Assembly (NCBI GenBank): GCA_041742075.1
Contig: JBGSJJ010000004.1
Span: 35,900-99,899 of the forward strand
Direction: 5' to 3'
Length of the DNA: 64,000 nucleotides
Source of the DNA: Minisyncoccia bacterium
GTDB lineage: Bacteria > Patescibacteriota > Minisyncoccia > Phycocordibacterales > UBA918
Shown here: one piece after another, positions 1,738 to 37,126 of the stretch
Layout of the letters: each line of letters opens with the position of its first letter
How positions within the stretch are numbered: the stretch's first letter is position 1
Position numbers and translations under genes: made by a program
Notes under the pieces: model-generated
What the model was told of the DNA's origin: nothing
The model's database searches: none
The model's input: only the letters and a program-made list of their open reading frames with translations

Positions 1738-2982
1738 CTACAAGTGTAGTTCAACCACTACTCGTAACTTTTTACCGCGTTTAAGAAGAATAGTCTGCCC
1801 GACAACATCCTTAGAAAACACATACGAAACATCAGTAATTACCTCATCGTTCACTGCCACCGCCCCACTCTCAACAAAGGTACGCGCCTCACGCTTACTG
1901 GTGGCAAGCTCTGCTTCCACTAGTGCATCAACAATACCAACACCAAAGGACATGGTTTTTGTGGGTGCATTTTTCTTTAACAACTCTAGTTCACTCATCT
2001 GTAGGTCCTTAAGAGGTACCGTACCAAACAATGCCTCAGTCACTCGTACTACTGATTCAGCTGAGTCAGCGCCGTGAACAAAGGCCACTACTTCTTTGGC
2101 GAGAATATTTTGAGCTAAACGTGTTTCAGGCGCTAGTTGATGCTTCTGCTCAATATCAGCAATTTCGGTTAGTGAGAGAAAAGTAAAAAGTTTTAAGTAA
2201 TCAATCACACTCGCGTCATCAGTGTTGAGCCAGAACTGGTAAAGTTCATAGGGAGAAGTCTTTTCGGCATCGAGCCAAACTGCGTTTCCTATACTTTTGC
2301 CAAATTTTTTCCCGGTAGTTTTATCAACTACAAGCGCCATTGTGAGTGCAAACACCGTATGGCCGGTAACTTTTCGAATATAGTCTACTCCTGAAATAAG
2401 ATTTCCCCACTGATCGGAACCACCAATCTGTAAATCGCAACCATAGGTAGTGTGAAGATGATAATAATCATAACTCTGAAGAAGTGCGTATGAGAACTCA
2501 GTATATGAAATACCCTGCTCACTTTGCATACGAGCAGATACCGCATCTTTTTTAATCATAGCGTTCACGGTAAAATGCTTACCTACGTTTCGTAAGTACT
2601 CAAACAATGAAAGCTTGGTAAGCCAATCGTAATTATTTACAAACGTAATGTCTCCAGTAGTAAGTTTTTTTATACCAACTTCCATCTCTTTCGCTTGCGC
2701 ACTAATGGTCTCTATTTCAGCTAGGGGACGTTCGGTATCTCGTCCGCCAGGGTCACCGATAAGCGCAGTTCCACCCCCAATAAGGAGATACACCTTGTGT
2801 CCAGCCTTAAGTAAGTGGTTAAGGAGCATGAATGGCACAAGGTTACCAACATGAATTGAGGTAGCTGTTGGGTCAATTCCGAGGTAAACGGTTCGTTTTT
2901 CTCCATCAAGAATCTCTCCTAAATCGTCGGTGGAAAACTGATAAACGAAACCACGCGCTTGAAGCTCTTCAGATAATTTCAT
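1738..2982 (-). CDS. tyrS: tyrosyl-tRNA synthetase
   Basis: 414 aa; class I HIGH-type motif (HVGN), KMSKS-type motif (KFGKS), C-terminal S4-like region. Confidence 0.9.
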   Translation of the reverse strand: MKLSEELQARGFVYQFSTDDLGEILDGEKRTVYLGIDPTATSIHVGNLVPFMLLNHLLKAGHKVYLLIGGGTALIGDPGGRDTERPLAEIETISAQAKEMEVGIKKLTTGDITFVNNYDWLTKLSLFEYLRNVGKHFTVNAMIKKDAVSARMQSEQGISYTEFSYALLQSYDYYHLHTTYGCDLQIGGSDQWGNLISGVDYIRKVTGHTVFALTMALVVDKTTGKKFGKSIGNAVWLDAEKTSPYELYQFWLNTDDASVIDYLKLFTFLSLTEIADIEQKHQLAPETRLAQNILAKEVVAFVHGADSAESVVRVTEALFGTVPLKDLQMSELELLKKNAPTKTMSFGVGIVDALVEAELATSKREARTFVESGAVAVNDEVITDVSYVFSKDVVGQTILLKRGKKLRVVVELHL

Positions 2983-3067
2983 ATAGGCACTATACCACAG
3001 CTATTATGACTGTATATATAGACAACTCATGCTACTATGGCCATAGTAGCCAACTTAGAACGAAGGT

Positions 3068-5338
3068 ATGAAGTATATAAAGAAGTATTTTAAAAAAGCA
3101 AAACGGTTTGTAAAACAACATGGTTTGGACCTCTTAATTGACGGCTTAATCGTGCTGTTTGTGGCTGGTTTAGTGATAGCCGGTGGTCTATTTATTTGGA
3201 TATCCACTCTAGAAATCCCTGACCTGTCTGCTTTTGAACAACGTCGCATTCTTCAGTCAACAAAAATCTATGACCGCACCGGAGAAGTTCTCCTTTATGA
3301 CCTCCACCAAGATGTGCGCCGGACAATTGTACCGTTTGAAGAAATCTCCTATCATATTAAAAATGCTTCCGTCGCAATTGAGGATGCAAATTTTTATAGT
3401 CACTATGGTATATCACCACGCGGTATTCTTCGCGCCGCTTTTTCTAACTTAGGTGAAGGTGACCTTTTGGGTGGTCAAGGTGGTTCTACTATTACTCAAC
3501 AGGTTATTAAAAACTCTATTCTTGAACAGGAAAAGCGTCTCACTAGAAAAGTGAAGGAGGCAATTCTGGCACTTAAAATTGAGCGGGTATTAACTAAAGA
3601 CGAAATTCTTTCGTACTACCTCAACGAATCTCCGTATGGCGGTACTATTTATGGCGTCGAGGAAGCTAGTCAAGCCTATTTTGGTAAAAGTTCTAAAGAT
3701 ATAACCCTCCCTGAAGCTGCTTACTTAGCTTCTCTTCCCCAAGCACCTACCTACCTATCACCTTATGGAGAAAATAAAGACGCCCTTGATGTCCGTCAGA
3801 AGCGCGTTTTAACCCGCATGAAAGAGCTAAACTTCATCACAGAAGAAGAATATAATTCCGCATCAAACACAGTGGTTGAATTCCAGCCTCAAGTATTAAG
3901 TGGCATTCGTGCTCCGCACTTTGTGATGTATATCAAAGAGCAGTTAGAAGAGAAGTACGGGGAGGAAGCGCTAGCCGAAAAAGGCTACCGAATTATTACC
4001 ACTCTTGACTATGAACTACAGGCTGAGGCGGAACGTATTGTAAAAGAAAAAGCGCTTGAAAACGTTACTAAGTTCAACGCCAGTAATGCCGGACTCGTTG
4101 CTATTAACCCACAAACTGGCGACATATTAACCATGGTAGGTTCGAGAGACTACTTTGATGAGGAAATTGATGGAAACTTCAACGTGACCCTGGCTAAACG
4201 ACAACCTGGTTCATCTATAAAGCCCTATGTATATGCCTCAGCTTTTGCTAAAGGCTATCGTCCAGAAACAATTGTCTTTGACCTTCCAACTCAGTTTAGT
4301 ACCGCTTGTGAACCATGGGATACCAGTAATGAGAACCCCTGCTACGCTCCAAAAAACTATAACAACATTTTCGTCGGCCCAATTAGTTTGCGTAATGCCC
4401 TCGCTCAGTCACTCAACATACCGGCAGTAAAAGTACTTTATTTAACTGGTCTTAAAGACGCCATTAAACTAACGTCTGACTTAGGTATAACAACTTTAAA
4501 TGACCCTGACCGACTGGGGCTTACGCTTGTGCTTGGTGGTGGTGAAGTAACCTTACTTGAACACACTGGTGGCTATGGTGTGTTTGCCAACGAAGGTGTT
4601 CGAGCTGACAGACGAAGTATTTTACGCATTGAAGACATTAATGGAAACGTACTTGAAGAACCAAAAGAAGTTACCACAAGAGTATTAGACCGAGATGTGG
4701 CCCTTATGATTTCAGACATACTTTCAGACAACAACGCCCGTACACCTCTCTGGGGAAACTACTCGCAAGTATTTTTTGGAGAGCGTGATGTCGCTGTTAA
4801 GTCAGGTAGTACCAACAACTCACGTGATGCCTGGATTATGGGATACACACCTAACCTCGCGGTTGGGGTATGGGTTGGTAATAATGACAATGCACCAATG
4901 AATGGTCTTTCCGGCTTAATCGCAACGCCGATGTGGCGACAATTTCTTGATATTGCTATTACAAAGATTGAAGATCAATCATTTCCCGAACCACCACCAC
5001 CAGATCCTAACTTAAAACCAATTCTTCGAGGTGCTATTATGGATCCGACGTTTATGCTTTCACAAGTTCAAGCTGGAAGTAGTTCACTTGACATAGCTGG
5101 TATAACTGACAACATCCACTCAATTCTTCACTTTGTTGATCGGTCTGATCCTACTGGACCATATCCAACCAATCCCGGCCGAGATGGTCAATATGAATAT
5201 TGGGAGTATAGTGTACAAAAATGGAAAGAATCTACGTATGGAGCACTTTTGGAATCAGTAAAAGCCGAGGAAACAATTAAAGAGGATGAAGAAGAGGAAG
5301 ATCCAGAACCTACACCACGCAGTAGAAGGTCTAGATAA
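3068..5338 (+). CDS. class A penicillin-binding protein (bifunctional glycosyltransferase/transpeptidase, PBP1A-like)
   Basis: 756 aa; N-terminal TM helix; GT51 motifs (EDANFYSHYGISPRGILRA, GGSTITQQ); transpeptidase region with SxxK-like STNN..KSG; acidic C-terminal tail. Confidence 0.85.
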   Translation: MKYIKKYFKKAKRFVKQHGLDLLIDGLIVLFVAGLVIAGGLFIWISTLEIPDLSAFEQRRILQSTKIYDRTGEVLLYDLHQDVRRTIVPFEEISYHIKNASVAIEDANFYSHYGISPRGILRAAFSNLGEGDLLGGQGGSTITQQVIKNSILEQEKRLTRKVKEAILALKIERVLTKDEILSYYLNESPYGGTIYGVEEASQAYFGKSSKDITLPEAAYLASLPQAPTYLSPYGENKDALDVRQKRVLTRMKELNFITEEEYNSASNTVVEFQPQVLSGIRAPHFVMYIKEQLEEKYGEEALAEKGYRIITTLDYELQAEAERIVKEKALENVTKFNASNAGLVAINPQTGDILTMVGSRDYFDEEIDGNFNVTLAKRQPGSSIKPYVYASAFAKGYRPETIVFDLPTQFSTACEPWDTSNENPCYAPKNYNNIFVGPISLRNALAQSLNIPAVKVLYLTGLKDAIKLTSDLGITTLNDPDRLGLTLVLGGGEVTLLEHTGGYGVFANEGVRADRRSILRIEDINGNVLEEPKEVTTRVLDRDVALMISDILSDNNARTPLWGNYSQVFFGERDVAVKSGSTNNSRDAWIMGYTPNLAVGVWVGNNDNAPMNGLSGLIATPMWRQFLDIAITKIEDQSFPEPPPPDPNLKPILRGAIMDPTFMLSQVQAGSSSLDIAGITDNIHSILHFVDRSDPTGPYPTNPGRDGQYEYWEYSVQKWKESTYGALLESVKAEETIKEDEEEEDPEPTPRSRRSR

Positions 5339-7070: not shown

Positions 7071-8453
7071 TTATTTAAGAAGGAGGCGAATTTGTGTAAT
7101 CTCTTCTTCAAGCTCATTGTTCCCCTTTAAATCATTCTTTATCTTTTCACATGAGTGAATGACGGTGGTATGGTCTCGACCACCTAGTTTTTGACCAATA
7201 GCTGGGTATGAGACTTGAAAATCTTCCCGGAGAATATACATAATAAGTTGACGAGGTTTTACAATTTCTTTTCGCCTTGTCTTCTCATAAATTGAAGATG
7301 GATCAATTTCATAGTAGCGAGCAATTTTTTCTACTACATCAGAAACAGCTAAAGTTTTTCGTGGGCGGGTGCTGTTTTTAATAATAACCTTTACTTCCTC
7401 GAGTGAAAGTGAACGGCCAAGTAGTTGGGACTGGCACATAATGGTATTGAGTGCCCCTTCGAGTTCTCGAATGTTGCCTTCGATGGTAAAGGCGAGATGG
7501 TCAATTACTTCATCGATGAGGGTAATACCATTTTGTGCTGCTTTGGCCCTTAGAATAGCCCCTCTTGATTCGATATCCGGTGCTGGTATATCGACAATCA
7601 TTCCTTGAGCAAAGCGTGATTGAAGACGTTCAGCTAATCCAGAAAGAAGGGCGGGATGAATGTCACTTGAAAATACAATTTGCTTATTGTTATCATGGAG
7701 TGCATTAAAAAGATGAAACAATTCCTCCTGAGTTTTTTCCTTATTAGCGAGAAACTGTACATCATCCATGATAAGAACGTCATACTGACGATACTTATCT
7801 TTAAAACTATTAGCCGTGCCGTTTTGAAGGCTATTAAAGTAGTCGACAGTAAAGCGTTCACTGGTTACATAAAAAACTTTCTTTCCAGACCGCTTAAGGT
7901 GATTACCGACTGCTTGGATAAGGTGGGTTTTACCATGACCAGTTTTTCCGTAAATAAAAAGTGGATTGTATGAGATGCCCGGTTTTTCACTGACGGTCTT
8001 AGCAGCTGCATGAGCAAGAGCGTTAAAAGGTCCAACTACAAATGAATTAAAGGCATATTTAGGATTGAGGTTGTCACTTTTGTTGATGTAGTATTCCTCA
8101 AGTGGGAGGGCTGCATTTACCGTCATCGATTTAGAAGTTTCTTTTCGCTTGTCACTTCTTTGTATGACAACGTACTCAATACTTCGTACGTGTGGGGTAA
8201 GGTCACGCAGTACTTTTAGAATCATGGACTGAAACTTATCAGATAGCCAATCTCTCACAAAGACACTAGGTACGCCAAGAGAAATGGTTCCGTCTTCAAG
8301 TGAGCTAATATGGGTGTCTCTAAACCAAGTCTTAAAGTTGGCAGGAGTGATTGAAAGTTCAATAGTAACAAGCGCATCATCCCACAATTTTTTAACATCA
8401 ATCTGTTCTGTATGTATGATTGTGTTTGATGTGGGATGAGAAATTGGATTCAT
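7071..8453 (-). CDS. dnaA: chromosomal replication initiator protein DnaA
   Basis: 460 aa; AAA+ Walker A GKTGHGKTHL, Walker B VLIMDDVQF, C-terminal HTH DNA-binding domain. Confidence 0.95.
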   Translation of the reverse strand: MNPISHPTSNTIIHTEQIDVKKLWDDALVTIELSITPANFKTWFRDTHISSLEDGTISLGVPSVFVRDWLSDKFQSMILKVLRDLTPHVRSIEYVVIQRSDKRKETSKSMTVNAALPLEEYYINKSDNLNPKYAFNSFVVGPFNALAHAAAKTVSEKPGISYNPLFIYGKTGHGKTHLIQAVGNHLKRSGKKVFYVTSERFTVDYFNSLQNGTANSFKDKYRQYDVLIMDDVQFLANKEKTQEELFHLFNALHDNNKQIVFSSDIHPALLSGLAERLQSRFAQGMIVDIPAPDIESRGAILRAKAAQNGITLIDEVIDHLAFTIEGNIRELEGALNTIMCQSQLLGRSLSLEEVKVIIKNSTRPRKTLAVSDVVEKIARYYEIDPSSIYEKTRRKEIVKPRQLIMYILREDFQVSYPAIGQKLGGRDHTTVIHSCEKIKNDLKGNNELEEEITQIRLLLK

Positions 8454-9246: not shown

Positions 9247-9975
9247 ATGTTCAGTTTTATTTGGCACACATTTTTCTTTGACCCAATTTACAATGGTCTC
9301 GTCTTTTTTATAGATGTTATACCAGGTGGTGACGTGGGTTTGGCTATTATTTTTATTACAATACTCGTGAAAGTTATCTTATTACCTCTGTCTATAAAAG
9401 CAGCTAAAACTCAGGTCGTGATGCGGGAGATTGAACCAAAACTTAAAGAACTTAAAGAAAAAATTACTGACAGACAAGAACAAGCAAAAGCCATGATGCT
9501 TCTGTATAAAGAATCAGGCATTAATCCCTTCGCCAGTATCATCCTCGTTTTTTTACAGATACCGATTTTAATTGCCCTCTACTTAGCTCTTTCAAAAGGA
9601 GGTGGTGTACCACTACCGGCTATTAATACAGATATTTTATATACCTTTATTCCTAATCCAGAATCAGCCTCAATGCTTTTCTTAGGTATTCAAGATATAA
9701 CCCTTCGCAGTTTACCCCTAGCGCTCTTAGCGAGTGTATTTCAGTTCATTCATGGCTCACTTACTATCCCAAAAGCTACACCACGTGACCCGAATGTCCC
9801 ACTAACCCTTAAAGAAGACTTTACGCGTAACATGCACCTTCAGATGCGCTATGTGATGCCGATAATTATTTTCTTTGCGGGGTATACAATCTCAGCGGCG
9901 CTCGCACTTTATTTTGCTATCAGCGCTCTGATGGCGATTGGAACAGAGTTTATCGTGAGACGCTACCGAAACTAA
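9247..9975 (+). CDS. yidC: membrane protein insertase YidC/Oxa1 family (short Gram-positive-like form)
   Basis: 242 aa, multi-TM; follows rnpA; conserved LPL..K/ Q..M..I.P...EL segment. Confidence 0.85.
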   Translation: MFSFIWHTFFFDPIYNGLVFFIDVIPGGDVGLAIIFITILVKVILLPLSIKAAKTQVVMREIEPKLKELKEKITDRQEQAKAMMLLYKESGINPFASIILVFLQIPILIALYLALSKGGGVPLPAINTDILYTFIPNPESASMLFLGIQDITLRSLPLALLASVFQFIHGSLTIPKATPRDPNVPLTLKEDFTRNMHLQMRYVMPIIIFFAGYTISAALALYFAISALMAIGTEFIVRRYRN

Positions 9976-11093
9976 CCAGCTCCAATACCGAGAGTACAGG
10001 TCACCACACGATTTATAACACCGCTAGTAACTGGCGTTCCACCAGCTTGATTACACTGGGCAGTTTGAGCAGAGCAATTCCAACCCAATAACCCGAAATT
10101 ACACGGATACGTTTCGGTTCTCGTCGTGGCTGGTGGGTTAGCTGGATCATCTGTTGGAGTGTCTACAGAGTCTATAGGAGTACTGCGGGCACCATAACAA
10201 AGTACCTCTCCCGGGTTACTGGTATTGACGATGCCGAGTTGACTTCCACCACTACAGCGAGCAGTAATGACTGCATCAGTATTCCACGAAGTACAACGTT
10301 CAGCACTTTGTCTAAGACAGGTTGCTTCTAATCTGTCCATTTCACAACCGCCAACTTCAGTACAGTAGTCGAGTAGGTCAGCCCGTATATCGTCTGGAAT
10401 GTCTTCAGGTAAGCCAGGAACTATCGCCGGGTCAACAATTACATCACTGGGTTCTGGAATGATACAACTATATACAATTCCGGTAGCTGTTACATTTGTG
10501 ATACGTGTTTGCCTATCAGGACAACTTTCTGGTCCGGTGATCACGTCTGAATCAGGGTCTGGTTCGCCCGGCCCGGGAGGTTCTGGATTTTCACCGATAC
10601 CGTCACCATCGCTGTCTCTAGGAACGGGTCGATATTGCTGGCCACACTCTACATCGGCCCAGATGTTACCGATATTTTGACCACGTAAGGCTTCCCAGTA
10701 CGTTCCTCCACCAGAGACGGTTAATGCTTTGAGTACCGTGTCGACTATCGTCCATGCCCCAAGGAGTAAGACGAGGCCAATTAAGGCATTGACGAAAAAT
10801 ACTTTTGCTTTGGCGTAGGCGGCCTGGTTTCCACCTGAAAATACGAGTTTAAAACCAGCGTATATAAGCACTAAAGCGACAAAGATGGTCGAGATAGTAA
10901 CTATCCAATCCACCACCACGTCTATCTGCTGTACTAAGTGACAAAAGTTACATTCAGGGCCTTCACACACCACTAAGCCAGCTGGTCCCGGGTCTTGTGC
11001 GAAGCTGGTGCTAGGGAAAGCAAAAACACTCAGAACAAGGAAACTTATGGTGAGTAAAGAAAGTGTCCGCACGAAAAGTGAAGCTAAAGACAT
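9972..11093 (-). CDS. secreted membrane protein: signal peptide + two hydrophobic helices (VirB2/TrbC pilin-like topology) + about 230-aa Cys-rich extracellular C-terminal domain
   Basis: Signal peptide ...STSFAQ; CEGPECNFCH; TM1 VVVDWIVTISTIFVALVLIYAGF; loop SGGNQAAYAKAK; TM2 FVNALIGLVLLLGAWTIV; at least 14 Cys in the C-terminal part. Last gene of the T4SS-like operon. Confidence 0.5.
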   Translation of the reverse strand: MSLASLFVRTLSLLTISFLVLSVFAFPSTSFAQDPGPAGLVVCEGPECNFCHLVQQIDVVVDWIVTISTIFVALVLIYAGFKLVFSGGNQAAYAKAKVFFVNALIGLVLLLGAWTIVDTVLKALTVSGGGTYWEALRGQNIGNIWADVECGQQYRPVPRDSDGDGIGENPEPPGPGEPDPDSDVITGPESCPDRQTRITNVTATGIVYSCIIPEPSDVIVDPAIVPGLPEDIPDDIRADLLDYCTEVGGCEMDRLEATCLRQSAERCTSWNTDAVITARCSGGSQLGIVNTSNPGEVLCYGARSTPIDSVDTPTDDPANPPATTRTETYPCNFGLLGWNCSAQTAQCNQAGGTPVTSGVINRVVTCTLGIGAG

Positions 11094-11098
11094 ACGTG

Positions 11099-12295
11099 TT
11101 ATTGAACCAAAGCTGGGTCAAACACCCAGAGTGTGTTATCGGTCTTGTTTCTAAAGACAATCTTTGACCAATCATCAACCATAGACATGTTTGTGACATC
11201 AAGTTTTCTGCCGGCAGCGGTAAGTGGACTGAGGAAGAAGACGTTCTGTCCGGTTTCGAGGTTAAAGAACCAGAAGGTATCATCTGAAGTTAGGGTTCCT
11301 TTATACCACGCATCAATAAACGTCGTGCTGGTCTCGGCTTCTGGCACGGCACACCACATAAGGACACTATCTGGCCTGGAAAACGTACATTTCTCTGGTA
11401 GTAAGAGGTGATCTGTTTGGTATAGGGTTTTGGTTGGGGTCACTGTCTCACTAAACAGTACGCGATTTTGCGTATACGTATAGATAGAGGCGACATCGTT
11501 TTTGAGCATGACTAAACTAGCCCCACTATTTCCTATTGGAATAAGTGTGTTGTTCCTAATCTCATACGCATACCCTTCAAGGAGAGGAGATGGCTTGGTG
11601 TAAGTATAGATACCTTCTATGGTGTGACCCCACACTATTTTTAATTGACGAATTTTGAGTGAAAATAGTTCTTGGCGCACTTGGGTGTCGAGGTTGTAGC
11701 TATAACCTTTAGTTCCGTTTTGGTTCTCGAGGGTGTAGAGAATGACGCGATTATTTTCATAAGCAATATTGCTTGGATTTGGTGGTAAGGGAATAGTCTC
11801 TTGGGTTTCAGGCGACCCTTCCTCAAGCCCTAGTTCAGCCACAAAACTCGAACGGGTATTGTCGATGTAGGTGCTATAGACAACAGATGAGCCGTCTGGG
11901 GAGAACACAGCTTCGACTGACTGCGGAACCGTCATTTTAGATACGGAGGTCTCTTCCCCAGTAAAGAGATTTATTTCATAGACGTGTCCCACTCCCCGCT
12001 CGGCAAAACGGACTTTGGGATAGCCAGCTGTGGTTGTTATCACAAAACCAGAAGCAGGCCGGTTCGAGAGTAATTTAAGCGGGAACTTGGCGAGGGCTTC
12101 TGGGTCGGGAGTGGTATCAACGATCGACTCACTCTCTAGTTCCTGAAGTGGGCGATCTTCTCCGCCCGTAAAGCCGAGGTTAGTAAATATTTCCCCACCA
12201 GACTTAGGGGTACCAAAAAATAGTAAATACAACCATACTGAAATGAGTATGATAAGTATGAGTATTCCCCCGCCAATTAATATTCCTCGTTTCAT
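11099..12295 (-). CDS. N-terminally membrane-anchored hypothetical protein (T4SS-like operon)
   Basis: 398 aa; single N-terminal TM (ILIGGGILILIILISVWLYLLFF) then a large extracytoplasmic domain; start 3 nt-scale spacing from neighbours. Confidence 0.6.
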   Translation of the reverse strand: MKRGILIGGGILILIILISVWLYLLFFGTPKSGGEIFTNLGFTGGEDRPLQELESESIVDTTPDPEALAKFPLKLLSNRPASGFVITTTAGYPKVRFAERGVGHVYEINLFTGEETSVSKMTVPQSVEAVFSPDGSSVVYSTYIDNTRSSFVAELGLEEGSPETQETIPLPPNPSNIAYENNRVILYTLENQNGTKGYSYNLDTQVRQELFSLKIRQLKIVWGHTIEGIYTYTKPSPLLEGYAYEIRNNTLIPIGNSGASLVMLKNDVASIYTYTQNRVLFSETVTPTKTLYQTDHLLLPEKCTFSRPDSVLMWCAVPEAETSTTFIDAWYKGTLTSDDTFWFFNLETGQNVFFLSPLTAAGRKLDVTNMSMVDDWSKIVFRNKTDNTLWVFDPALVQ

Positions 12296-12304
12296 AAATA
12301 TAGG

Positions 12305-13177
12305 CTAAATGTTTTGACAAGAACAGCTCCTACCGTTATTTCCCTGATCCTGACATAGTAACGTTCGGGTCTCTGTGCCACAAAACTCATTGCCAGTACA
12401 GGCGTCGCCCGAAACTTGTGAAGTTGGTTGTGTCCACACACAAACTCCACCAGGATTAGTATTGTCGCCACCGCCTCCACCCGTGCCGTCAGCCCGGGTG
12501 ACATTTCTGAGAGCATCGAGCTCAGCCCTTTGCGCTTCAAGTGCGGCACGCATGTCAGCGTCAGAACCGGCACCTAAGGCATCAAGTTCAGCCAGGGCCT
12601 CATCTATGGCAGCTAACATGGCCTCTACTTGATTTCGGTCCATTTGGGCTAGGTTTAATCGAGCTGGGAAACAGAGGTATTGGTTTGGGATAAGATTTCC
12701 ATCAGCATCAGTAGCTTGCTCAAAGCGTCCAGGCAGAGCATCACACGCGAGACGACTAACCGCCACCGCATTGGGTTCGTCTCTCACAATTCCGATAGGG
12801 TTAAAGGTTGAGCGGTTATCCTCGCCTTCCCCCGATTCTAAGAAAGCTAGGTTGGTCAAACTGGTGTTGACGGTGTTCAAAATTATTACTGCCGCGAGCA
12901 CGATAAGCAAGCCAAGAATAGCGCCCCTGATGTCTCGCTTAGCATCTTCTTTACTCGTTACGATGTCGGAGAGAACGTACTTTACTCCCGCAATGGTGAT
13001 TTTAAGTAAGGCCAACACTGCCGCAATTGAGATAGAGAGAATATACAGTGCGTTTAGGTAGGCGTCGACGTCTATGTTGCCTTCGTCTACCCCCGGGATA
13101 CCAACCATAACCTGAAACTCCTGTGCAAAGGTATTGAGTGGGAAGAGGAGAGCGAGAACGATAAGTGTTTTTAACAT
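12305..13177 (-). CDS. second VirB2/TrbC pilin-topology protein with coiled-coil and Cys-rich C-terminal extension
   Basis: Signal peptide MLKTLIVLALLFPLNTFAQ; TM1 LNALYILSISIAAVLALLKITIAGVKYVL; charged loop SKEDAKRDIRG; TM2 AILGLLIVLAAVIILNTV; C-terminus ...CVWTQ...CTGNEFCGTE...CQDQGNNGRSCSC. Confidence 0.5.
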   Translation of the reverse strand: MLKTLIVLALLFPLNTFAQEFQVMVGIPGVDEGNIDVDAYLNALYILSISIAAVLALLKITIAGVKYVLSDIVTSKEDAKRDIRGAILGLLIVLAAVIILNTVNTSLTNLAFLESGEGEDNRSTFNPIGIVRDEPNAVAVSRLACDALPGRFEQATDADGNLIPNQYLCFPARLNLAQMDRNQVEAMLAAIDEALAELDALGAGSDADMRAALEAQRAELDALRNVTRADGTGGGGGDNTNPGGVCVWTQPTSQVSGDACTGNEFCGTETRTLLCQDQGNNGRSCSCQNI

Positions 13178-13180
13178 AAC

Positions 13181-14323
13181 TTAAAATCTAATTTGAAATG
13201 AATTACGAGCTGCACTGATGATGTCTGAGGCACTGCGAATCTGAAGTCCAACGGTATACTCAGCACTACCGCTGTCTTTACGAAGGGTTATTTCGTACGG
13301 GTTTTTAAGTGAACCGCTTACTTTCCTACCACCAAGTGTCCACGAGACACTAGCGCCAGAAGCCAGGCTACTCTTTTCTAAGTGGTAGGGTGCCCCAAGT
13401 ACCGTTATTTCATTGGCGGTCAAGTCAAATGGAGACTTAAGAGCTACTTCACTAATACCCCTAAGGGCGTTATTTTCATAGAAAATAAGTTCTCCTTCAG
13501 TTAAAGGTACGTCAATACTTTTTCGCCCAATACGGAGACCGTCAAGGTTTGAGACTTCAACCACTAGGGTGACTTCTTTGCGGAGTGGTGGAGAAAAGCG
13601 GATGGTGTTGCCTCCACGCGTGTTTCCCCCGTTTATTACTTTGTTTTCGAGCTTCCATACATAACTGAGGTCACTAGAACCTATGCCAGTACCGGTATAC
13701 ACGACTGCAGTAGCAGAAATAGGAGAATTAACGCCAGGCAAACTTCTACCCGCATAGAAAACCGGAGCGGTGGTATTGGCATCGATAATGATGTCTACAC
13801 GTATTGGTCTAAAGGTGTAGCTTGCGCTGACTTTTACCCCACTTTCCATAACGAGCTCGGCGCGGACTTCCTTTGTCTTACCTAGTGCGGGGCTGACAAT
13901 AGTAATTTTACGGAGACCTGTAAGAGCATCAATCCGGGCTCCATCGACATACCATACAATAATCGCACCGACGGTATTGAGTGAATAATCATCAAGTCGT
14001 ATTTCGGTAACCGTATCGGGTGGTGGAAAGCTCGGTGAGGCAATAAGGCTTGCTGGACTCCCATTGGTTTGAAATGACTGTATACCAGTCCCTTGACTCG
14101 GCGCATTGGTAGTAGGGAGGCTTCCGTTGAACTGATTTAAAGCGTTAATCAACGACTGCTCGTAGTCGCCTGCTATATTGGTATTGAGTCTATATTCAGG
14201 AAGGGCAATATCGCTTATTGACAAACCCTCACTATCTTCATCTGATTGTGCAAATGAGTTTTGCGCAATCATAAAACTAGTTATGATGAGGAGAAACAAA
14301 AATTTGCGAGCCCAATTTTGCAT
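13181..14323 (-). CDS. secreted hypothetical protein (cleavable signal peptide), T4SS-like operon
   Basis: 380 aa; N-terminal signal peptide ...QNSFAQ; beta-rich composition; no recognisable catalytic motif. Confidence 0.6.
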   Translation of the reverse strand: MQNWARKFLFLLIITSFMIAQNSFAQSDEDSEGLSISDIALPEYRLNTNIAGDYEQSLINALNQFNGSLPTTNAPSQGTGIQSFQTNGSPASLIASPSFPPPDTVTEIRLDDYSLNTVGAIIVWYVDGARIDALTGLRKITIVSPALGKTKEVRAELVMESGVKVSASYTFRPIRVDIIIDANTTAPVFYAGRSLPGVNSPISATAVVYTGTGIGSSDLSYVWKLENKVINGGNTRGGNTIRFSPPLRKEVTLVVEVSNLDGLRIGRKSIDVPLTEGELIFYENNALRGISEVALKSPFDLTANEITVLGAPYHLEKSSLASGASVSWTLGGRKVSGSLKNPYEITLRKDSGSAEYTVGLQIRSASDIISAARNSFQIRF

Positions 14324-15362: not shown

Positions 15363-17168
15363 TTAGCTATTGGCACGAAGTTCCTCGCGCGCTTTTTTAA
15401 TCTGAAGAATTTGGGATGGGTCAGAGGTAATAATTTGGTCCTCGGTATACGAGGCAATCACTTTAATCGCTACGTGCTTCATGCCGGCAAAGAAGATACC
15501 TTCCCCTACCCCACTTTCAAGGAGAAGAAACTTCTCTTCATCAGTTAGGTTGAATGTCTGTTGAATGTTATCTATTGCAGTCGGTGACTGCTTCATAAGA
15601 AGCTGAAGACTGGAGTTGGTGATCATCGGAATTCCGTATGGTGAGCGGAGGAAGTCGTCCACGTCTTGGGTAATCGTCGAAAGACCAAGGTAGTATTTTC
15701 GTCCACGTTTGGCGAGCATAAAGAGGAAAGACGCCGTGTCTTCACTTTTCATCATCCACCAGGCTTCATCGATTACCAAGAGTCGTTTAGTGAGGCGTCT
15801 TCTAATGGCACTCCAGATGTGGTTGGTGATGATGTACATTGCCACCGTTTTAAGCTCGTCTTCCATGTCTCGCAAGGAAAACACTACGAATTTTTGGTTG
15901 ATGTCGACGTTGGTTGGTTTGTTCATAAAACCAGACCAGGTACCTGAAGAGTATTTTTGGAGTCGAGAAATCAGTGAACCACTCCCCTCCATGCCGGCGA
16001 GCACCATTTCGAAGTCTGAAAGTAGTGGTGGTTCAAGGGTGCTGTAATCACTGGTTCCTGTAATGTCCTTAAGTGCATAGGTTTCGATAATGGCTTGGTC
16101 AATAATAGTTTCCTCCTCTGGAGTCAGTCCACCAAGCATGAGGCGGAACATACCCATCAGCTCGATAATATGCGAACGTAAAATATCGCTCGGACTCTCG
16201 TCAGGTTGTGCTATCGGTAAGTCAAACGGATTAATGTGGTGAGAAGAAGAAAGCGAAATATTGAAAAACCGACCACCGGTGGCTTCTGCTAGGTACTCGT
16301 ATTCACGCTCCGGGTCAATCACGATTACCTCGACCCCAAACATAAGTGAACGCAAAATCTCTAGCTTGGTGGTGTATGACTTACCGGCTCCAGAGGTAGC
16401 AAACGTAACGGAGTTGTAGTTGGTGAGCTGGAACCGATCGAAGAGGACAAGACTTGAGTTGTGGCGGTTGATGCCATAGAGGATACCGGTGTCCGACGTA
16501 AGGTCAAACGAAACAAACGGAAAGAAACTTGAAAGTGGGGCGGTGTTGAATTTACTGTGAATAAGTAGTTCGTCTGAACAAGTCGGGATCACACTCCGAA
16601 TCCCTTGCTCTTGCTGAAAGAGCGCTGGTTTAAGGTGAATCAGACGAGCATCAAGGATACTTTTTATTTCTGATTCGGTTTTATTTAAAACTGCCTCGTC
16701 CTCACCATAGATAGTTACATAGAGGCCCACATTAAAAAGCTTCTCTTCCGCCTGTTGAAGCTTGTCGCGCAGGTCTTCGAGGTTGCGCCAGGCGGCTTCA
16801 AGTTGTGGATCACGCACCATACCTTGTTCAGCGCGGATGTTTATTTGACTCTGTACCTCAGCTACTTTTTTCTGGAACTTCTTGAGTGTTTCAGCTGTAT
16901 CAATCGGGTGAATCACGATTGATACATCGAGTTCTTTTTCAATGTTAAGAATTGGCTCAAGCCAGCCATCGTTTAGGTAACGTGGGTAGGATACGGTGAA
17001 AAACGTTCGGGCATAGGTACCACTGATGTTTATGCTTCTGGTGTTAATTTCAATTCCCGATGGAGCGATAATGTCCTCTAGGGTAAGCAGTGCTTCAGAA
17101 ACCGCCGAGACGGAGTTATCATCAAAGTTTGAAGTTTTTTTTGGTTGTAAGAAGTCTAGTAAAGCCAT
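15363..17168 (-). CDS. virB4: VirB4/TrbE/CagE-family type IV secretion ATPase (ATPase-domain ORF)
   Basis: 601 aa; Walker A FATSGAGKSYTTK; Walker B LLVIDEAWWMM (DEAW typical of VirB4); size and motif order of the VirB4 C-terminal two thirds. Confidence 0.85.
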   Translation of the reverse strand: MALLDFLQPKKTSNFDDNSVSAVSEALLTLEDIIAPSGIEINTRSINISGTYARTFFTVSYPRYLNDGWLEPILNIEKELDVSIVIHPIDTAETLKKFQKKVAEVQSQINIRAEQGMVRDPQLEAAWRNLEDLRDKLQQAEEKLFNVGLYVTIYGEDEAVLNKTESEIKSILDARLIHLKPALFQQEQGIRSVIPTCSDELLIHSKFNTAPLSSFFPFVSFDLTSDTGILYGINRHNSSLVLFDRFQLTNYNSVTFATSGAGKSYTTKLEILRSLMFGVEVIVIDPEREYEYLAEATGGRFFNISLSSSHHINPFDLPIAQPDESPSDILRSHIIELMGMFRLMLGGLTPEEETIIDQAIIETYALKDITGTSDYSTLEPPLLSDFEMVLAGMEGSGSLISRLQKYSSGTWSGFMNKPTNVDINQKFVVFSLRDMEDELKTVAMYIITNHIWSAIRRRLTKRLLVIDEAWWMMKSEDTASFLFMLAKRGRKYYLGLSTITQDVDDFLRSPYGIPMITNSSLQLLMKQSPTAIDNIQQTFNLTDEEKFLLLESGVGEGIFFAGMKHVAIKVIASYTEDQIITSDPSQILQIKKAREELRANS

Positions 17169-17171
17169 AGA

Positions 17172-17807
17172 TTAATTTATACGGGGTGCGTCACCAGTGG
17201 TATCCCCCGGGTTAAAGATATGATAAAAAAGCTCAACTAATTCTTCATTCTGAAGTGGAACCGTGCGGACACCAATCCGAATCAGTCCCTGTTCAACGAG
17301 GGTAGACCGTTGCTCGAGTTGAACCCGGTATTCTTCAAACTGTTTTTCATCAAACAGTGACTTGTTCTTCTTACTACCAAACATAGAAGTGATACCCGAG
17401 GCTAGGTTTGCTTGAATCGGTGTGTACGGCACTACAATGAAAAAGTTTTTACTCATAATATCCACCTCAGTCGTGAAGGTGCGAATGAACTGCATGTATT
17501 CTCGAAGTTGAATTTGCATCAGGTCATTGTCTTGGATAGGTTCCCGAGCTTCGAGTAAGGCAAGATAGGGTGTGATGTCGAGTCGTCGTGACTGGATATA
17601 AAACTGAATCGAGAAATCGAGCGTGTTTAAAAAAGACTGAAATTGAGTCAAAATAGCCTGTTGTTCGTCGGCACTCTTAAGGGCGAAGTTGATTGAGGAG
17701 GCGAGTAAAATAGTGCAAAGTTTACCATCTTTTAAAACCACCACATTTTCTTTAATGTCGCGGACAGGGACGAAATCTTGAGTTGCTGGTTTTACGTTAG
17801 AAGCCAT
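17172..17807 (-). CDS. VirB4 N-terminal domain ORF (separated from the ATPase ORF only by an in-frame TAA plus one codon)
   Basis: 211 aa; same frame as the downstream ATPase ORF (...PRIN-TAA-TCT-ATG-MALL...); N-terminus VPVRDIKENVVVLKDGKLCTILLASSINFALKSADEQ resembles the N-terminal region of Gram-positive VirB4 homologues (from memory). Confidence 0.6.
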   Translation of the reverse strand: MASNVKPATQDFVPVRDIKENVVVLKDGKLCTILLASSINFALKSADEQQAILTQFQSFLNTLDFSIQFYIQSRRLDITPYLALLEAREPIQDNDLMQIQLREYMQFIRTFTTEVDIMSKNFFIVVPYTPIQANLASGITSMFGSKKNKSLFDEKQFEEYRVQLEQRSTLVEQGLIRIGVRTVPLQNEELVELFYHIFNPGDTTGDAPRIN

Positions 17808-17808
17808 A

Positions 17809-18225
17809 TTATTTTACTTTTTGGAGAGCCTGCATTTCTAGTTTACGGGAGAGCGAGTTTATACCTCCTTTACCAGTCGTGGGCATAGTCTGAATACCAG
17901 AAGCACTACGCGCGTCTCCCGACGCTCTATCTCGGTACACAACGTCAGTTCGTTTGTGCCAGTAGTACATCTTGGTTTTTTTGTAGTAGTTGACGACTGA
18001 TTCAAGAAAGATTGAAAAGGGACGGTTGTTCACTGGATAAAAAGCGAGCAGTAGGGCGAGGAGAGTAAGGGGAAGACCAATTAAGAGAAACACGATGAGT
18101 CCAAAGACAATGTACGAAACGACCCCAACCCCAACCCCGCCAGCTAGATACACGAATTGTTTCCAGGTGAAGGGACCAATGATTTTGTCTTCGATTTCAA
18201 TAAATTGAGGTACCTCAAAACGCAT
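17809..18225 (-). CDS. PrgI/VirB3-like small membrane protein
   Basis: 138 aa; MRFEVPQFIEIEDKIIGPFTWKQFVYL start and double-TM hairpin, typical of the PrgI family found immediately upstream of VirB4 in Gram-positive T4SS loci. Confidence 0.55.
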   Translation of the reverse strand: MRFEVPQFIEIEDKIIGPFTWKQFVYLAGGVGVGVVSYIVFGLIVFLLIGLPLTLLALLLAFYPVNNRPFSIFLESVVNYYKKTKMYYWHKRTDVVYRDRASGDARSASGIQTMPTTGKGGINSLSRKLEMQALQKVK

Positions 18226-18277
18226 ACATATGTATTATACATTGTACTTTACAATTAGCGGCGTAACTTATGCGAAC

Positions 18278-19204
18278 TTATCCCCGACCGTCGTTTGCTT
18301 GGTCGCTACTGAAGTCAGGCGTAGGTACCACCGGTGCTCGTTTTAGCAAGGCATCTTGCGCCACACTATGAATGATATTTTTATTGGCGTCCGGAGTTCC
18401 GTAGAGCTCAGGATATTTTTCTCGATACGCACCGTAGCCATGAATTCGTTCGTTGTCAGTATCCATGGTTCGAACAGGTGCTATGTCAGCAGGACGTTCA
18501 GTTTGGGGTGGTGGCGGAGTAGCAGTAAATGGGTTTGGGATATTGAGTGGCGGAACTGAGCTAACTGGTTTAGTTACCGGCAGTGGTTCAGAAACCACTG
18601 GTTCAGACAAGCTCGTGAGGCGAGCCGAAGAAGCAGGGCCGGCGATTGGTACCTGGGCGACTGACGGAATAGGGCTTGGGGCCACAGTATCGTACGTTGT
18701 ACTAGCGGTAGGAGGTATTACTGGTTGAAACACTGCTTGGGGTGGATTTGGTGCTGTTGCTACTGTGCTACGTGGGGCCGGAGTAGTTTGGGCAGACATA
18801 CCGGTCGGGACTGTTTCAGAGGCTGGTTTTAGGTAGTTTTTGGTAGTTGCTGAAGATGTTCCAGGTAGTGGGCTTTGTGGCAGTGGTGCAGACACAACGA
18901 CACTTTGCGCACTTTTTTCTTTGAGAGTTTTTACTGTTTGGGAAATTTCCAGAGCCAGACTCATTTGTATATCATCAGTTACACCGAGCGAACTAAGCTC
19001 ATTAAGCATCGACTTTAAATCAACGAGGCCAAGAAGATAATAGCTCATCGCAGTGGTAAGAGCTCGCCTATTTTTATCCTCGAGGTGGTGTTTTATAAGA
19101 AGAGCGGTGACGGCAATCGGAATTTGCTCTGAGTCAATCAGGGTCTTTACCTCAGCCGGAGCCTTGGTGTATGCGTCTTGAAATTTTTCCCAGTTACTTT
19201 GCAT
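18278..19204 (-). CDS. hypothetical protein with Pro/Thr/Ser-rich low-complexity C-terminal half (T4SS-like operon)
   Basis: 308 aa; N-terminal helical region, no TM; C-terminal PxxP-rich tract. Confidence 0.55.
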   Translation of the reverse strand: MQSNWEKFQDAYTKAPAEVKTLIDSEQIPIAVTALLIKHHLEDKNRRALTTAMSYYLLGLVDLKSMLNELSSLGVTDDIQMSLALEISQTVKTLKEKSAQSVVVSAPLPQSPLPGTSSATTKNYLKPASETVPTGMSAQTTPAPRSTVATAPNPPQAVFQPVIPPTASTTYDTVAPSPIPSVAQVPIAGPASSARLTSLSEPVVSEPLPVTKPVSSVPPLNIPNPFTATPPPPQTERPADIAPVRTMDTDNERIHGYGAYREKYPELYGTPDANKNIIHSVAQDALLKRAPVVPTPDFSSDQANDGRG

Positions 19205-19215
19205 ATGTGAATGAT

Positions 19216-21348
19216 TTACCTAAAGAATTCTGAACCGTAGACTGAGTTATTTGCCCAATTAGCCCATGGTCCTGGCGGTACGGTTGGAGAGCCACCTGGT
19301 GGCGGAACCAGACCTCCGGCATTAATTAAGACAGCTGTCATGAGTCTTATACGCTCGTTTTCGTTAATTCCGTTTTTCATACGAGCCTCAATAATTCTTG
19401 GGGTGATGTATCCAATCATTTCTGGACGAATCAAAGCGTCTACTGATAGTGTGCCGACGACTGCATCGCCACCAGCTAAGAGTCGTTGTCGTTGAGTAGT
19501 TTGATGTCCTACAGCAGTACCTCCAGTACGTAGAGCGGTATTCGTAGCTTCATAGATTGGAGCGGCTGCCGTTCCCCCGGTTTGAACAACACTAGCTGTT
19601 CCAAACTGCGCAACATTATTTTGTGCTGTGCGACGAGCAGCTCTAATAGCGTTGATGTCTTCGTTACTAAAGTTTCCTGAACCTTCAAGAGAAGTTATCT
19701 GAGCATCAGTAAGGTTAATAGCCACGTTACCATTTGTAAGTTGCCCGACGTCTAAGTTGGCACGTTCGCTATTTGACATCTCACGAATTGTTGTAGCAAG
19801 ATCTCGAAGACTGGTATCGAGCTCCCCAACGGTTCTGGTGTTGTCTTCTAAACCAGCTAGGTGTTCAGCAAACGCAACCTCGCGAGTCTGTTCAGCCAAT
19901 ACCTGGTTGTTTCTAATGTTTTGCTTTTTCTCAAAGGTGTTAACATCGTTTCGTGATTGTTTACCTCCGTACTTAGCAGATGCCGTGGCGTCAATAGCTT
20001 GCTGACGAGTTCGTGCAGTGAGTCCGACAGCACCGAGCGCAACCCGACCCACTCTCGCGCCGGCTGAATTACTGGTACTTAAACGAGCATTAGCCCGGGC
20101 AACGGCTTTCCCAACTCTCGTATCTGGATCACCAATACGGCCAAGAGTATTCCTTCCAACAAATGAACTCCCGCCTCCGACTAATGAACTCGCGCCTCCG
20201 ACTAACCTCCTTTGCACGCTTTGCATCGCGTTAAGTGACATAGAAGCGCCCCCGGCACCCATTTTCTTCGAAACAACGATGGCACCAACCATGAAACCAA
20301 GGGCAATTAAGTAAAACAAAATCGAAAGTGGCACGTCGTTACCAGTTTCTTCTGGGTTGAGGGCGATTTTGTTGAGGTTGTAGGTTGAACCAGCCTCAAA
20401 TGCCTGTGCGTGAAAGCCTATCAATACTTTGAAAGCAATAAAAATCATAAAGAAGTAGGCTGGAGCAAAAAAAGCTTGGTTTAAAAACCCACTCCACCAC
20501 TTACTGGTGTAGCCCTGAAACTTCGGTAGAATCATACCCAGGAACATAAAGGGTGAGAACATCATGTATATCACCAGGGAGATAAATCTAATAGTGAGCA
20601 TGATGGCACCTGCCAAAAACACCGCCGCTGAGGTGAGCATAAACACCAAAATCATAAGCAGGTAGCCAAAGCTCCGATAGCCTTCTTGGTCAATGGCTTC
20701 TGCCCCACCCAAGGCTTGGAGTCCGACGAGTTGCATAAACATAGCGTGTATACCAACACTCTCTGGGCTTTCGATATTTATGGTAGGAAGCGTAGCCCCT
20801 TCGGGAAAAACAGAGGCGGTGGTGTTAACTGTCTCTGCCATGAGGTTAAAAATTTGTATCGCGGCGATGTTTGAGAAGTCAACGATAAATTTTGCAAAGA
20901 AAAGACTAAAGTTTATGAGAAGCGCCGCCACAATCAAAGAACCAAGCGCTCGCTTGGCGCCACTATCGTCAGCGTTCCAGATAAGCTTCAGTCCAATAAA
21001 CACCAGTGCAAAGATAAATAGCATGTTAAAGACGTCTCGAATGATCACCCAGACCTCCTCAACTGCAATACCGATGTTGCCAAGCATCCATTCACCCATA
21101 CCGCGGACAAAGTTATTTACCGCAGCATCAAAGGCAATCCCGGCCAGCCAAACAGCAAAACCACCAATCTGCATGACAACGTGATAGAAGAAGGCAAAAA
21201 TCCAAGCCCCGACACCACTTTCGTCAGCGTCGACTACGGTTGGGGCAGTCCCTTGAGCATGAGATAGGGCCGGAAGCACGAAAAAGAGCGCAATACAAAG
21301 TATCGGGAACCAGGTTCTTAAAATGAGTTGTAATACAAAGTACTTCAT
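19216..21348 (-). CDS. VirB6/TrbL-like polytopic membrane protein with about 330-aa C-terminal extension
   Basis: 710 aa; signal peptide/first TM; at least 6 hydrophobic helices over residues about 50-390; C-terminal soluble region with coiled-coil-like segments. Confidence 0.55.
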   Translation of the reverse strand: MKYFVLQLILRTWFPILCIALFFVLPALSHAQGTAPTVVDADESGVGAWIFAFFYHVVMQIGGFAVWLAGIAFDAAVNNFVRGMGEWMLGNIGIAVEEVWVIIRDVFNMLFIFALVFIGLKLIWNADDSGAKRALGSLIVAALLINFSLFFAKFIVDFSNIAAIQIFNLMAETVNTTASVFPEGATLPTINIESPESVGIHAMFMQLVGLQALGGAEAIDQEGYRSFGYLLMILVFMLTSAAVFLAGAIMLTIRFISLVIYMMFSPFMFLGMILPKFQGYTSKWWSGFLNQAFFAPAYFFMIFIAFKVLIGFHAQAFEAGSTYNLNKIALNPEETGNDVPLSILFYLIALGFMVGAIVVSKKMGAGGASMSLNAMQSVQRRLVGGASSLVGGGSSFVGRNTLGRIGDPDTRVGKAVARANARLSTSNSAGARVGRVALGAVGLTARTRQQAIDATASAKYGGKQSRNDVNTFEKKQNIRNNQVLAEQTREVAFAEHLAGLEDNTRTVGELDTSLRDLATTIREMSNSERANLDVGQLTNGNVAINLTDAQITSLEGSGNFSNEDINAIRAARRTAQNNVAQFGTASVVQTGGTAAAPIYEATNTALRTGGTAVGHQTTQRQRLLAGGDAVVGTLSVDALIRPEMIGYITPRIIEARMKNGINENERIRLMTAVLINAGGLVPPPGGSPTVPPGPWANWANNSVYGSEFFR

Positions 21349-36616: not shown

Positions 36617-37126
36617 GTGCTTCGCATGCCATACGTTTACCGGTTGTGGATCTTTGTTTCGATTTTCTTCTTGGCAATGCCAACTTTAGCTTTCGAGGAT
36701 TGCCGGGAATCAGGAAACAGTGATGTGTGCATATTGCTTGCAAGTGATAGTGAGTCACAGGAAAGACCGGTTCCTTTACTAGAGAGACATACGTTTCGTA
36801 CGGCATTTAACGATTCGGGTTATGAGCTTGCGGCTTTTATGTTATGCAACGCTCCCGGCAGACTCTCGTGTGAAGTAGCAGAAGTACAACTCTCACAGCG
36901 GTTTGATTCGGAACCCTGTCGACAGCTTTACTTTGTAGCACTTGTAAATGGGCACGGATATCAAGAACCAATTCTTGCTTACTTCCATGCGATTGAGTTT
37001 GCAATGAAGGGAAGTTTTGGCAATCTACTGCCCGTTCGCACAAGTATGCCCGATACCGAAACAGGTCTTGTACCTTGCTTTAACACAGCATATGCCATAT
37101 TACAGCGTTGGCCTACCAGTAAGTAA
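36617..37126 (+). CDS. hypothetical secreted protein
   Basis: 169 aa; N-terminal signal peptide (LWIFVSIFFLAMPTLAF); followed by hairpin terminator ACAGGCGC-ATAAA-GCGCCTGT-TTTT at 37134-37160. Confidence 0.5.
   Translation: MLRMPYVYRLWIFVSIFFLAMPTLAFEDCRESGNSDVCILLASDSESQERPVPLLERHTFRTAFNDSGYELAAFMLCNAPGRLSCEVAEVQLSQRFDSEPCRQLYFVALVNGHGYQEPILAYFHAIEFAMKGSFGNLLPVRTSMPDTETGLVPCFNTAYAILQRWPTSK

Follow-up and report, generated by a model that had tools for sequence, protein, structure and literature searches.

Type IV secretion system (T4SS) gene clusters with VirB2-like pilins or pilin arrays have already been described from the Patescibacteria (PMC12102498, PMC10633639, PMC12857230), and in Southlakia epibionticum, the one system tested, the T4SS and its pilin array are essential for epibiotic growth (PMC10633639). 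A Patescibacteria pilus is treated in a review only as a possibility (PMC12857230), a survey of Patescibacteria T4SSs detected no adhesins (PMC12102498), and neither an adhesin nor an effector has been linked to the system (PMC10633639, PMC12102498). The locus considered here lies in 64,000 nucleotides of DNA from a Minisyncoccia bacterium (assembly GCA_041742075.1, contig JBGSJJ010000004.1, positions 35,900 to 99,899 of the forward strand; the whole stretch is called the window) and encodes two proteins, A and B, that are probably VirB2-like (PF18895) pilin modules of a chromosomal, dnaA-proximal T4SS bearing exchangeable host-contact ectodomains. The T4SS itself is known; as far as could be established, the form of VirB2-like pilin that bears an ectodomain as an exchangeable tail is undescribed, and no mention of a fused pilin ectodomain was found in the literature searched, which does not span all journals.

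The arrays of S. epibionticum ML1 (SEML1_0006-0019) and Nanosynbacter lyticus TM7x share with this locus a PF18895-type module, a chromosomal MPF-FATA-like T4SS with VirB4, TrsD, and PrgI, a position adjoining dnaA, rnpA, yidC, and ksgA, a cluster in which no relaxase is seen, and divergent pilin paralogues, about 25% identical, that lie in tandem or one non-pilin gene apart. Their pilins were published as small proteins of VirB2 size, whereas here and in about 60 Paceibacteria-type genomes the module continues into a hypervariable, disulfide-rich ectodomain of 48 to 356 amino acids. The classical pilins VirB2 (Ti plasmid), TrbC (RP4), and TraA (F), of family PF04956, likewise have a signal peptide and, after it, a pair of hydrophobic helices with a short charged loop, and are encoded together with VirB3 and VirB4. 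They differ in that they work in diderms and are made as propilins of about 100 to 145 amino acids, maturing to about 70 to 80, with no extra domain. Both A (373 amino acids) and B (290 amino acids) exceed this hairpin-only size, with 180 to 225 additional amino acids.

Pilin modules and ectodomains of proteins A and B

A reading of the DNA made from sequence only had proposed two paralogous proteins in which the topology of VirB2/TrbC pilins is fused to large cysteine-rich extracellular domains. Both open reading frames (ORFs) are present on the minus strand, pilin A at 9972..11093 (an A-type VirB2-like module with an orphan Cys-rich ectodomain) and pilin B at 12305..13177 (a B-type VirB2-like module with an orphan ectodomain). 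The proposed layout of a signal peptide followed by helix, charged loop, and helix was borne out by hydropathy, by AlphaFold2 (AF2) helices, and by A-x-A-like cleavage sites; the topology given here rests on these, on the -3/-1 rule, and on the distribution of cysteines. In A, the predicted Sec signal peptide (residues 1 to 32; 10998..11093, minus strand) ends at PSTSFA/QDPG, with small residues at -3 and -1 and an AF2 helix at residues 3 to 30. Kyte-Doolittle hydrophobic segments fall at residues 1 to 32 (the leader), 56 to 88, and 92 to 126, AF2 helices at 50 to 85 and 90 to 126 have predicted local distance difference test (pLDDT) scores of 70 to 84, and the loop between them is short and charged (SGGNQAAYAKAK). 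The A module (residues 33 to 150; 10644..10997, minus strand) runs from a CEGPECNFC motif through helix 1, the SGGNQ…KAK loop, and helix 2 to a conserved W145…C150, and the columns invariant in A-type relatives are C, SGG, VD.V.K, W, and C. Protein B has a predicted signal peptide at residues 1 to 18 (13124..13177, minus strand; LNTFA/QEF), with an AF2 helix at 3 to 16 and an A-x-A/Q-type site that is aligned across homologues. Its module (residues 19 to 110; 12848..13123, minus strand) comprises a VGIPGV motif, helix 1, the charged loop SDIVTSKEDAKRDIRG, helix 2, and NT.L; the AF2 helices at 37 to 69 and 74 to 103 have pLDDT scores of about 80, and the arrangement PLVGIPGV…SDIVTSKEDAKKDI is common to 19 homologues. 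The proposed paralogy holds for the N-terminal part of about 110 amino acids, which is 25% identical between A and B (BLASTP E 2e-4), but not for the C-terminal parts, which are unrelated.

The curated Pfam cut-offs are 26.6 bits for PF18895 (T4SS_pilin) and 27.9 bits for PF04956 (TrbC). Protein A exceeds the first with 34.6 bits (E 2.1e-8, model positions 5 to 70 of 71) and reaches just 20.0 bits on the second (positions 11 to 97 of 98), which is below the cut-off; B is not listed among the PF04956 matches. PF18895 is matched by 57 of 68 B-type relatives (E ≤ 1e-3) and by all 34 of the 34 A-type relatives, and a protein at B's position in a related locus (L005) scores 27.3 bits on it. Three short A-type relatives of 131 to 137 amino acids attain the PF04956 cut-off (32.0, 29.1, and 27.9 bits), which ties the module to genuine conjugative pilins. 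Both A and B also touch, well below its cut-off, the NCBIfam model of a "pilin-like conjugal transfer protein" from a mycoplasma integrative and conjugative element, and a B-family profile found no match among PDB sequences. Together with the T4SS operon in which both genes stand, the PF18895 matches and the TrbC matches of the short relatives uphold the assignment to the VirB2/TrbC pilin topology, and homology of the module to VirB2 appears likely.

The extensions beyond the module measure 223 amino acids in A and 180 in B, in agreement with the predicted 180 to 230. In A (residues 151 to 373; 9975..10643, minus strand), an acidic Pro-rich linker and orphan ectodomain hold 12 cysteines and end in a four-Cys mini-module, C-x8-C-x6-C-x3-GG-x14-C (residues 329 to 369; 9987..10109, minus strand). 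The other cysteines of A's total of 16 are C43, C48, and C51, before helix 1, and C150, just after helix 2. All eight cysteines of B follow helix 2, in the ectodomain (residues 111 to 290; 12308..12847, minus strand), and its C terminus reads CSCQNI. The predicted fusion to Cys-rich domains and the clusters themselves were found; the CxxC is CNFC, before helix 1 of A. No other of the 60 long ORFs of the window has as many cysteines as A and B.

The two ectodomains stand apart from known families. Neither has a Pfam match at E ≤ 1. An exhaustive HMMER search of 1.84 billion representative proteins returned no true homologue of the A ectodomain, the matches other than A itself being two repeat proteins that were judged spurious, and no relative of it occurs among at least 100 related ectodomains. 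The B ectodomain has no BLASTP partner among related ectodomains, and P0022 is the only relative with a similar layout. AF2 places in it a unit of a helix and a beta-hairpin at residues 138 to 171, flanked by C145 and C169, and a confident helical hairpin at 181 to 228, followed by a Gly-rich linker and a six-Cys tail at 246 to 290.

Conserved modules and divergent tails in related loci

With the B-type module as the query, a scan in which each species was represented by one genome yielded 62 loci from Kaiserbacteria, Paceibacterota, Nomurabacteria, and Parcubacteria-type metagenome-assembled genomes, several records being labelled Saccharibacteria. Synteny of the T4SS core is kept in 45 to 53 of these loci, with VirB4, TrsD, and PrgI alongside the pilin in 48 to 53, and the order g380-g398-pilin-yidC-dnaA in about 55. 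The gene order is g407-VirB6-like-PrgI-TrsD-VirB4-g380-g398-pilin-yidC-dnaA in about 50, and about 15, among them the closest relatives of the window, have g380-pilin-g398 instead. The pilins are 119 to 477 amino acids long, with a tail of 48 to 356 (median, 162) after helix 2. The fusion had been called unusual, which is true against classical pilins but not within the lineage, where it is the rule: an ectodomain-bearing pilin was found in nearly all of the 62 related genomes. Because more than 60 independent genomes have this uninterrupted ORF, an artefact of gene fusion or assembly was rejected. The search for orthologues with and without the extension also turned up a naturally short B-type pilin of 122 amino acids (L005:6062-6430), at the same locus position and 93 bp before yidC, which shows that the ectodomain is dispensable in at least one lineage. 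In P0016, L012, L050, and L054, the Cys-rich domain precedes the hairpin. When metagenomes were scanned with the A-type module, short (127 to 145 amino acids) and long (230 to 396 amino acids) forms were recovered, often side by side, an array that fits an arrangement of major and minor pilins; no homologue of a window T4SS gene was found within 6 kb of these A-type pilins.

Each module in the 62 loci matches all others, the nearest being 51 to 100% identical and at least 65% identical in all but five, and most ectodomains have no detectable partner among the related ectodomains. Between the closely related loci L003 and L004, amino acid identity is 99.6% for dnaA, 98.6% for VirB4, 97.5% for the module, and 48% for the tail; between L028 and L029, it is 98.9% for dnaA, 87% for the module, and 21% for the tail. 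The ectodomain is the most divergent, fastest-evolving part of the locus. In two loci the module is shared between tandem paralogues of one genome: those of L019 (9890-10759 and 11977-12747) share 391 bp of module DNA at 99.7% identity and those of L055 (7771-8613 and 9773-10633) share 481 bp at 100%, and both pairs then diverge abruptly, 17 to 35 residues past the module. This pattern suggests, from the sequences, either that the module underwent gene conversion or that the tail was replaced. The abrupt boundary between carrier and tail is seen in these related loci (L019, L055, L003/L004, and L028/L029) and not in the window.

Across the related loci, cysteine makes up 4.3% of the tails versus 0.33% of the syntenic neighboring genes, a 13-fold difference. 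Of 60 Cys-containing tails, 58 have an even number of cysteines (binomial p about 1.6e-15), and the last Cys stands a median of four residues from the C terminus. Protein A is one of the two parity exceptions, its 13 post-helix cysteines being complemented by the 3 before helix 1. The same holds for the A-type family, in which three cysteines before helix 1 are joined by one after helix 2 in short forms, or by an odd number in long forms, to give an even total. Because the three N-terminal cysteines always pair with an odd number after helix 2, the simplest reading of the A-type sequences is that both ends would be extracellular and linked by disulfides. A mini-module of about 40 amino acids with four cysteines, C-x(8-14)-[YF][DN]C-x6-C-x3-GG-x(10-20)-C, recurs in 15 pilins, B-type ectodomains included. 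A local hidden Markov model built from instances of the motif matches A with an E value of 1.8e-9 but does not match any of the roughly 3,100 other ORFs of the loci; B contains no such module.

Elsewhere in the window, a membrane protein of the MauE family (PF07291, 41.8 bits) is encoded at 40835-41377 on the minus strand. In methylotrophs, maturation of a disulfide-rich subunit requires MauE, and by analogy the window protein may be relevant to the oxidative folding of the pilin tails. Two small plus-strand ORFs (36617-37126 and 37663-38343) have hydrophobic leaders, six and seven cysteines, and no Pfam match.

Possible functions of the ectodomains

If A and B are ectodomain-bearing pilins, the Sec signal peptide would be removed and the two-helix hairpin would insert in such a way that its basic loop faces the cytoplasm and both of its termini the exterior. 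The module would be the part recognised by the T4SS and assembled into, or docked at, a surface structure. The C-terminal ectodomain, on its flexible linker and stapled by disulfides, would end up outside the cell or filament, where it would touch the host surface as a specificity determinant, by binding or, in hydrolase-bearing relatives, by cutting the wall. This role is placed in the ectodomain because it is the fastest-evolving part and is replaced wholesale between close relatives. For A and B, we infer the topology of export, that disulfides form in the tails, that the T4SS displays them, and that they contact the host.

Several observations weigh against this interpretation. B scores 23.9 bits on PF18895 (E 4.3e-5), below the cut-off of 26.6. 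The proposed profile comparison of the module with VirB2/TrbC, made with hhalign against seven real plasmid proteins of 98 to 121 amino acids, aligned in register but weakly (P 0.019, probability 2.5), and Foldseek found no significant match in PDB. The suggested AlphaFold models of the C-terminal domains succeeded only in part: pLDDT is below 50 in the A ectodomain, which leaves no confident model, and in B it is 61 to 90 at residues 140 to 228 and below 50 in the tail, which leaves no confident full model. Neither ectodomain matches a known adhesin or carbohydrate-binding family. Most related loci encode no pilin other than the extended one, and each subunit of a filament there would bear a domain of 100 to 350 amino acids, an arrangement that may meet with steric hindrance. 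The rapid divergence might also stem from weak constraint instead of selection for specificity. Finally, we know of no Paceibacteria T4SS for which a pilus or surface display has been shown.

Some relatives carry recognisable enzymes on the pilin module. Two B-type paralogues of L058 (8923-9813 and 9875-10798) have Cys-free tails, one matching Peptidase_M15_3 (8.5e-16) and the other SLT (PDB 6TA9, E 7e-5; Pfam SLT, 17.2 bits). In the long A-type forms (n = 34), there are three SLT domains (7.5e-17), three SLT_3 domains (PF18896), and one each of Peptidase_M15_4 and VanY. P0004 (L063:3789-4700), among the three closest relatives of A, has a C-terminal domain that matches PDB 4HZ9 (E 9e-20), the type VI secretion system (T6SS) amidase effector Tae3 (PMC11796386). 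Because relatives bear M15, SLT, and Tae3-like domains in the same position, the pilin module carries, to judge from these matches, extracellular domains of several kinds. M15-like domains in P0002 and P0003 and an SLT domain in L063:2230-3225 had been guessed from sequence; Pfam and PDB searches did not support them. Locus L063 contains two A-type pilins (3789-4700 and 2230-3225) with a gene of 184 amino acids between them and no window T4SS gene in 12.7 kb, and a convergent gene of 166 amino acids follows P0004.

The peptidoglycan hydrolases of relatives open a second possibility, that of an envelope-attacking payload. The ectodomains of A and B would then be enzymatic or toxic payloads of unrecognised fold, delivered to attack or remodel the cell wall of the host or of the cell itself. 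We consider this rather unlikely for A and B, as we do the corresponding proposal that they are functional equivalents of a monoderm VirB1 hydrolase or a T6SS amidase effector and not adhesins. In its favor, hydrolases occupy exactly the same position in P0004 (Tae3-like) and L058 (M15_3 and SLT), and about 7 of the 34 long A-type pilins carry SLT, SLT_3, or M15_4/VanY; but besides the lack of Pfam matches and, for A, of any homologue, neither ectodomain has a recognisable SLT, lysozyme, CHAP/NlpC, or M15/M23 domain (Pfam, E ≤ 1) or a recognisable toxin domain. The L058 hydrolases are Cys-free, whereas A and B are built of short, probably disulfide-closed units of a kind more typical of binding or scaffold modules, and the confidently modelled part of B, a helical hairpin and a small helix/beta-hairpin unit, does not look like a hydrolase fold. 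Nor does a candidate immunity gene follow either pilin gene, the next genes downstream being the abutting, convergent yidC for A and the conserved g398 for B. A host-contact or specificity role, which is plausible and in keeping with the hypervariability, is favored for A and B because their tails appear to be small disulfide-closed units without a catalytic signature.

Two further alternatives concern anchoring and maturation. The hairpin might be a membrane anchor only, A and B being static, nonpolymerising accessory subunits of the T4SS, at the cell surface or spanning the wall, for which "pilin" is a misnomer, an explanation to which we give a low probability. T4SSs of the Gram-positive type generally lack a pilus (PMC12102498, PMC10633639), similarity to real VirB2 is weak, the sole pilin of most related loci carries a bulky domain, and that domain can stand on either side of the hairpin. 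Against this, conservation of the module, with its identity levels and its invariant helix and loop motifs, exceeds what an anchor needs; the module DNA is identical or nearly so between the paralogues of L019 and L055, as expected if the copies must fit one assembly; some relatives are as short as classical pilins; and pilin arrays are essential in S. epibionticum (PMC10633639). It is more improbable still that the C-terminal region is a pro-domain that is cut off at maturation and then released as a secreted product or degraded. TrbC and VirB2 lose short C-terminal peptides as they mature, and a cleaved tail would agree with the conserved (I/V)N(P/T)xL motif and flexible linker after helix 2, with the divergence of paralogues beginning 17 to 35 residues past the module, and with the natural short form in L005. 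Yet no TraF-like or other maturation peptidase was seen among the scanned cluster proteins, and a discarded piece would not need 4 to 20 paired cysteines or enzymatic domains. The N-terminal Cys triplet of A-type proteins is made even in number by the first Cys that follows helix 2, which implies that the mature protein would keep at least the beginning of the tail.

The T4SS operon and parallels in other systems

The window cluster is a dnaA-proximal Patescibacteria T4SS of the published type (PMC12102498), in which the VirB6-like assignment is weak. The minus-strand operon encodes, in order of transcription, proteins of 290, 407, 710, and 308 amino acids, PrgI/VirB3, a TrsD-like protein, and VirB4, and continues with a membrane protein of 324 amino acids, g380, pilin B, g398, and pilin A. 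The core of the system, in the same operon as A and B, spans 15363..21348 on the minus strand. It includes the VirB4 ATPase (15363-17168; TraG P-loop, E 3e-25), a TrsD-like VirB4 N-domain (17172-17807; TrsD, E 2e-7), and PrgI/VirB3 (17809-18225; PrgI, E 1e-9). Also within it are the 308-amino-acid protein, which precedes PrgI/VirB3, and the polytopic membrane protein of 710 amino acids, possibly VirB6-like, whose CD3337/EF1877 match reaches 15.5 bits versus a cut-off of 120. VirB4 is split between the TrsD-like gene and the separate ATPase gene (15363-17807, minus strand), a known trait of MPF-FATA-like Patescibacteria systems, and no relaxase family was found among the T4SS cluster proteins scanned.

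Downstream of the core, the genes are tightly packed, with gaps of 3 to 9 nucleotides among B, g398, and A. Between the pilin genes lies g398 (11099..12295, minus strand), a conserved protein anchored by an N-terminal membrane helix, and upstream of pilin B lies g380 (13181..14323, minus strand), a conserved secreted protein with a signal peptide. Neither has a Pfam or NCBIfam match, and both diverge faster than the cytoplasmic T4SS parts. They are conserved partners of the pilin, g398 adjoining it in 60 of the 62 related loci and g380 in 57. On the other side of pilin A, dnaA (7071-8453) is followed by rnpA and then by yidC (9247-9975, plus strand), which is convergent with pilin A; the stop codons of yidC (TAA, 9973-9975, plus strand) and pilin A (TAG, 9972-9974, minus strand) overlap by 2 nucleotides and leave no intergenic room for terminators.

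More tentatively than for the reading of A and B as ectodomain-bearing pilins, the family may be viewed as one of "evolved pilins," in which the VirB2-like module is a general delivery scaffold and unrelated ectodomains are recombined at a fixed point just after helix 2, their choice setting the host that an epibiont can attach to or breach. The ectodomains would comprise orphan disulfide-rich binders, partly built of pilin-specific four-Cys mini-modules, together with peptidoglycan hydrolases that include a T6SS-type amidase. "Evolved" VgrG and PAAR proteins of the T6SS, and polymorphic toxins, pair a conserved module, for structure or trafficking, with a C-terminal domain that is interchangeable and has a sharp boundary. 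The pilins resemble them in having paralogues with identical 5' and unrelated 3' parts and, in one relative, a T6SS-type amidase, but belong to another secretion machine, have no immunity gene that could be found, and bear mostly Cys-rich orphan payloads. In PilV, a minor pilin of the R64 thin pilus, a shufflon switches the C-terminal segment, which is thought to set partner-cell specificity. PilV is, however, a type IV pilus protein, not VirB2-type, and varies by site-specific inversion within one genome. No sign of a shufflon-like inversion was seen here, and a search of the 64-kb window found no further pilin-like ORF that might be a silent cassette. The VirB1-type hydrolases of monoderms (pIP501 TraG and PrgK, with a membrane anchor, SLT, and CHAP) are also membrane-anchored, extracellular, and T4SS encoded, and relatives of A and B bear SLT, M15, or CHAP-like Tae3 domains on the pilin module. 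The anchor here is a VirB2-like hairpin and not a single helix, and A and B have no hydrolase signature.

Host recognition and exploitation by Patescibacteria are poorly understood. The ectodomain-pilin form is widespread in one large branch of the Patescibacteria, and its tails point to a pool of small disulfide-rich folds without known relatives. If the pilin module itself bears the contact or attack domain, T4SS pilins would join the structural subunits, known from the T6SS, to which a working domain is added. The fastest-evolving piece of a highly conserved, origin-proximal locus would become a concrete candidate for host specificity, and on the evolved-pilin view the pilin genes would be host-range determinants of a very large and mostly uncultivated bacterial radiation.

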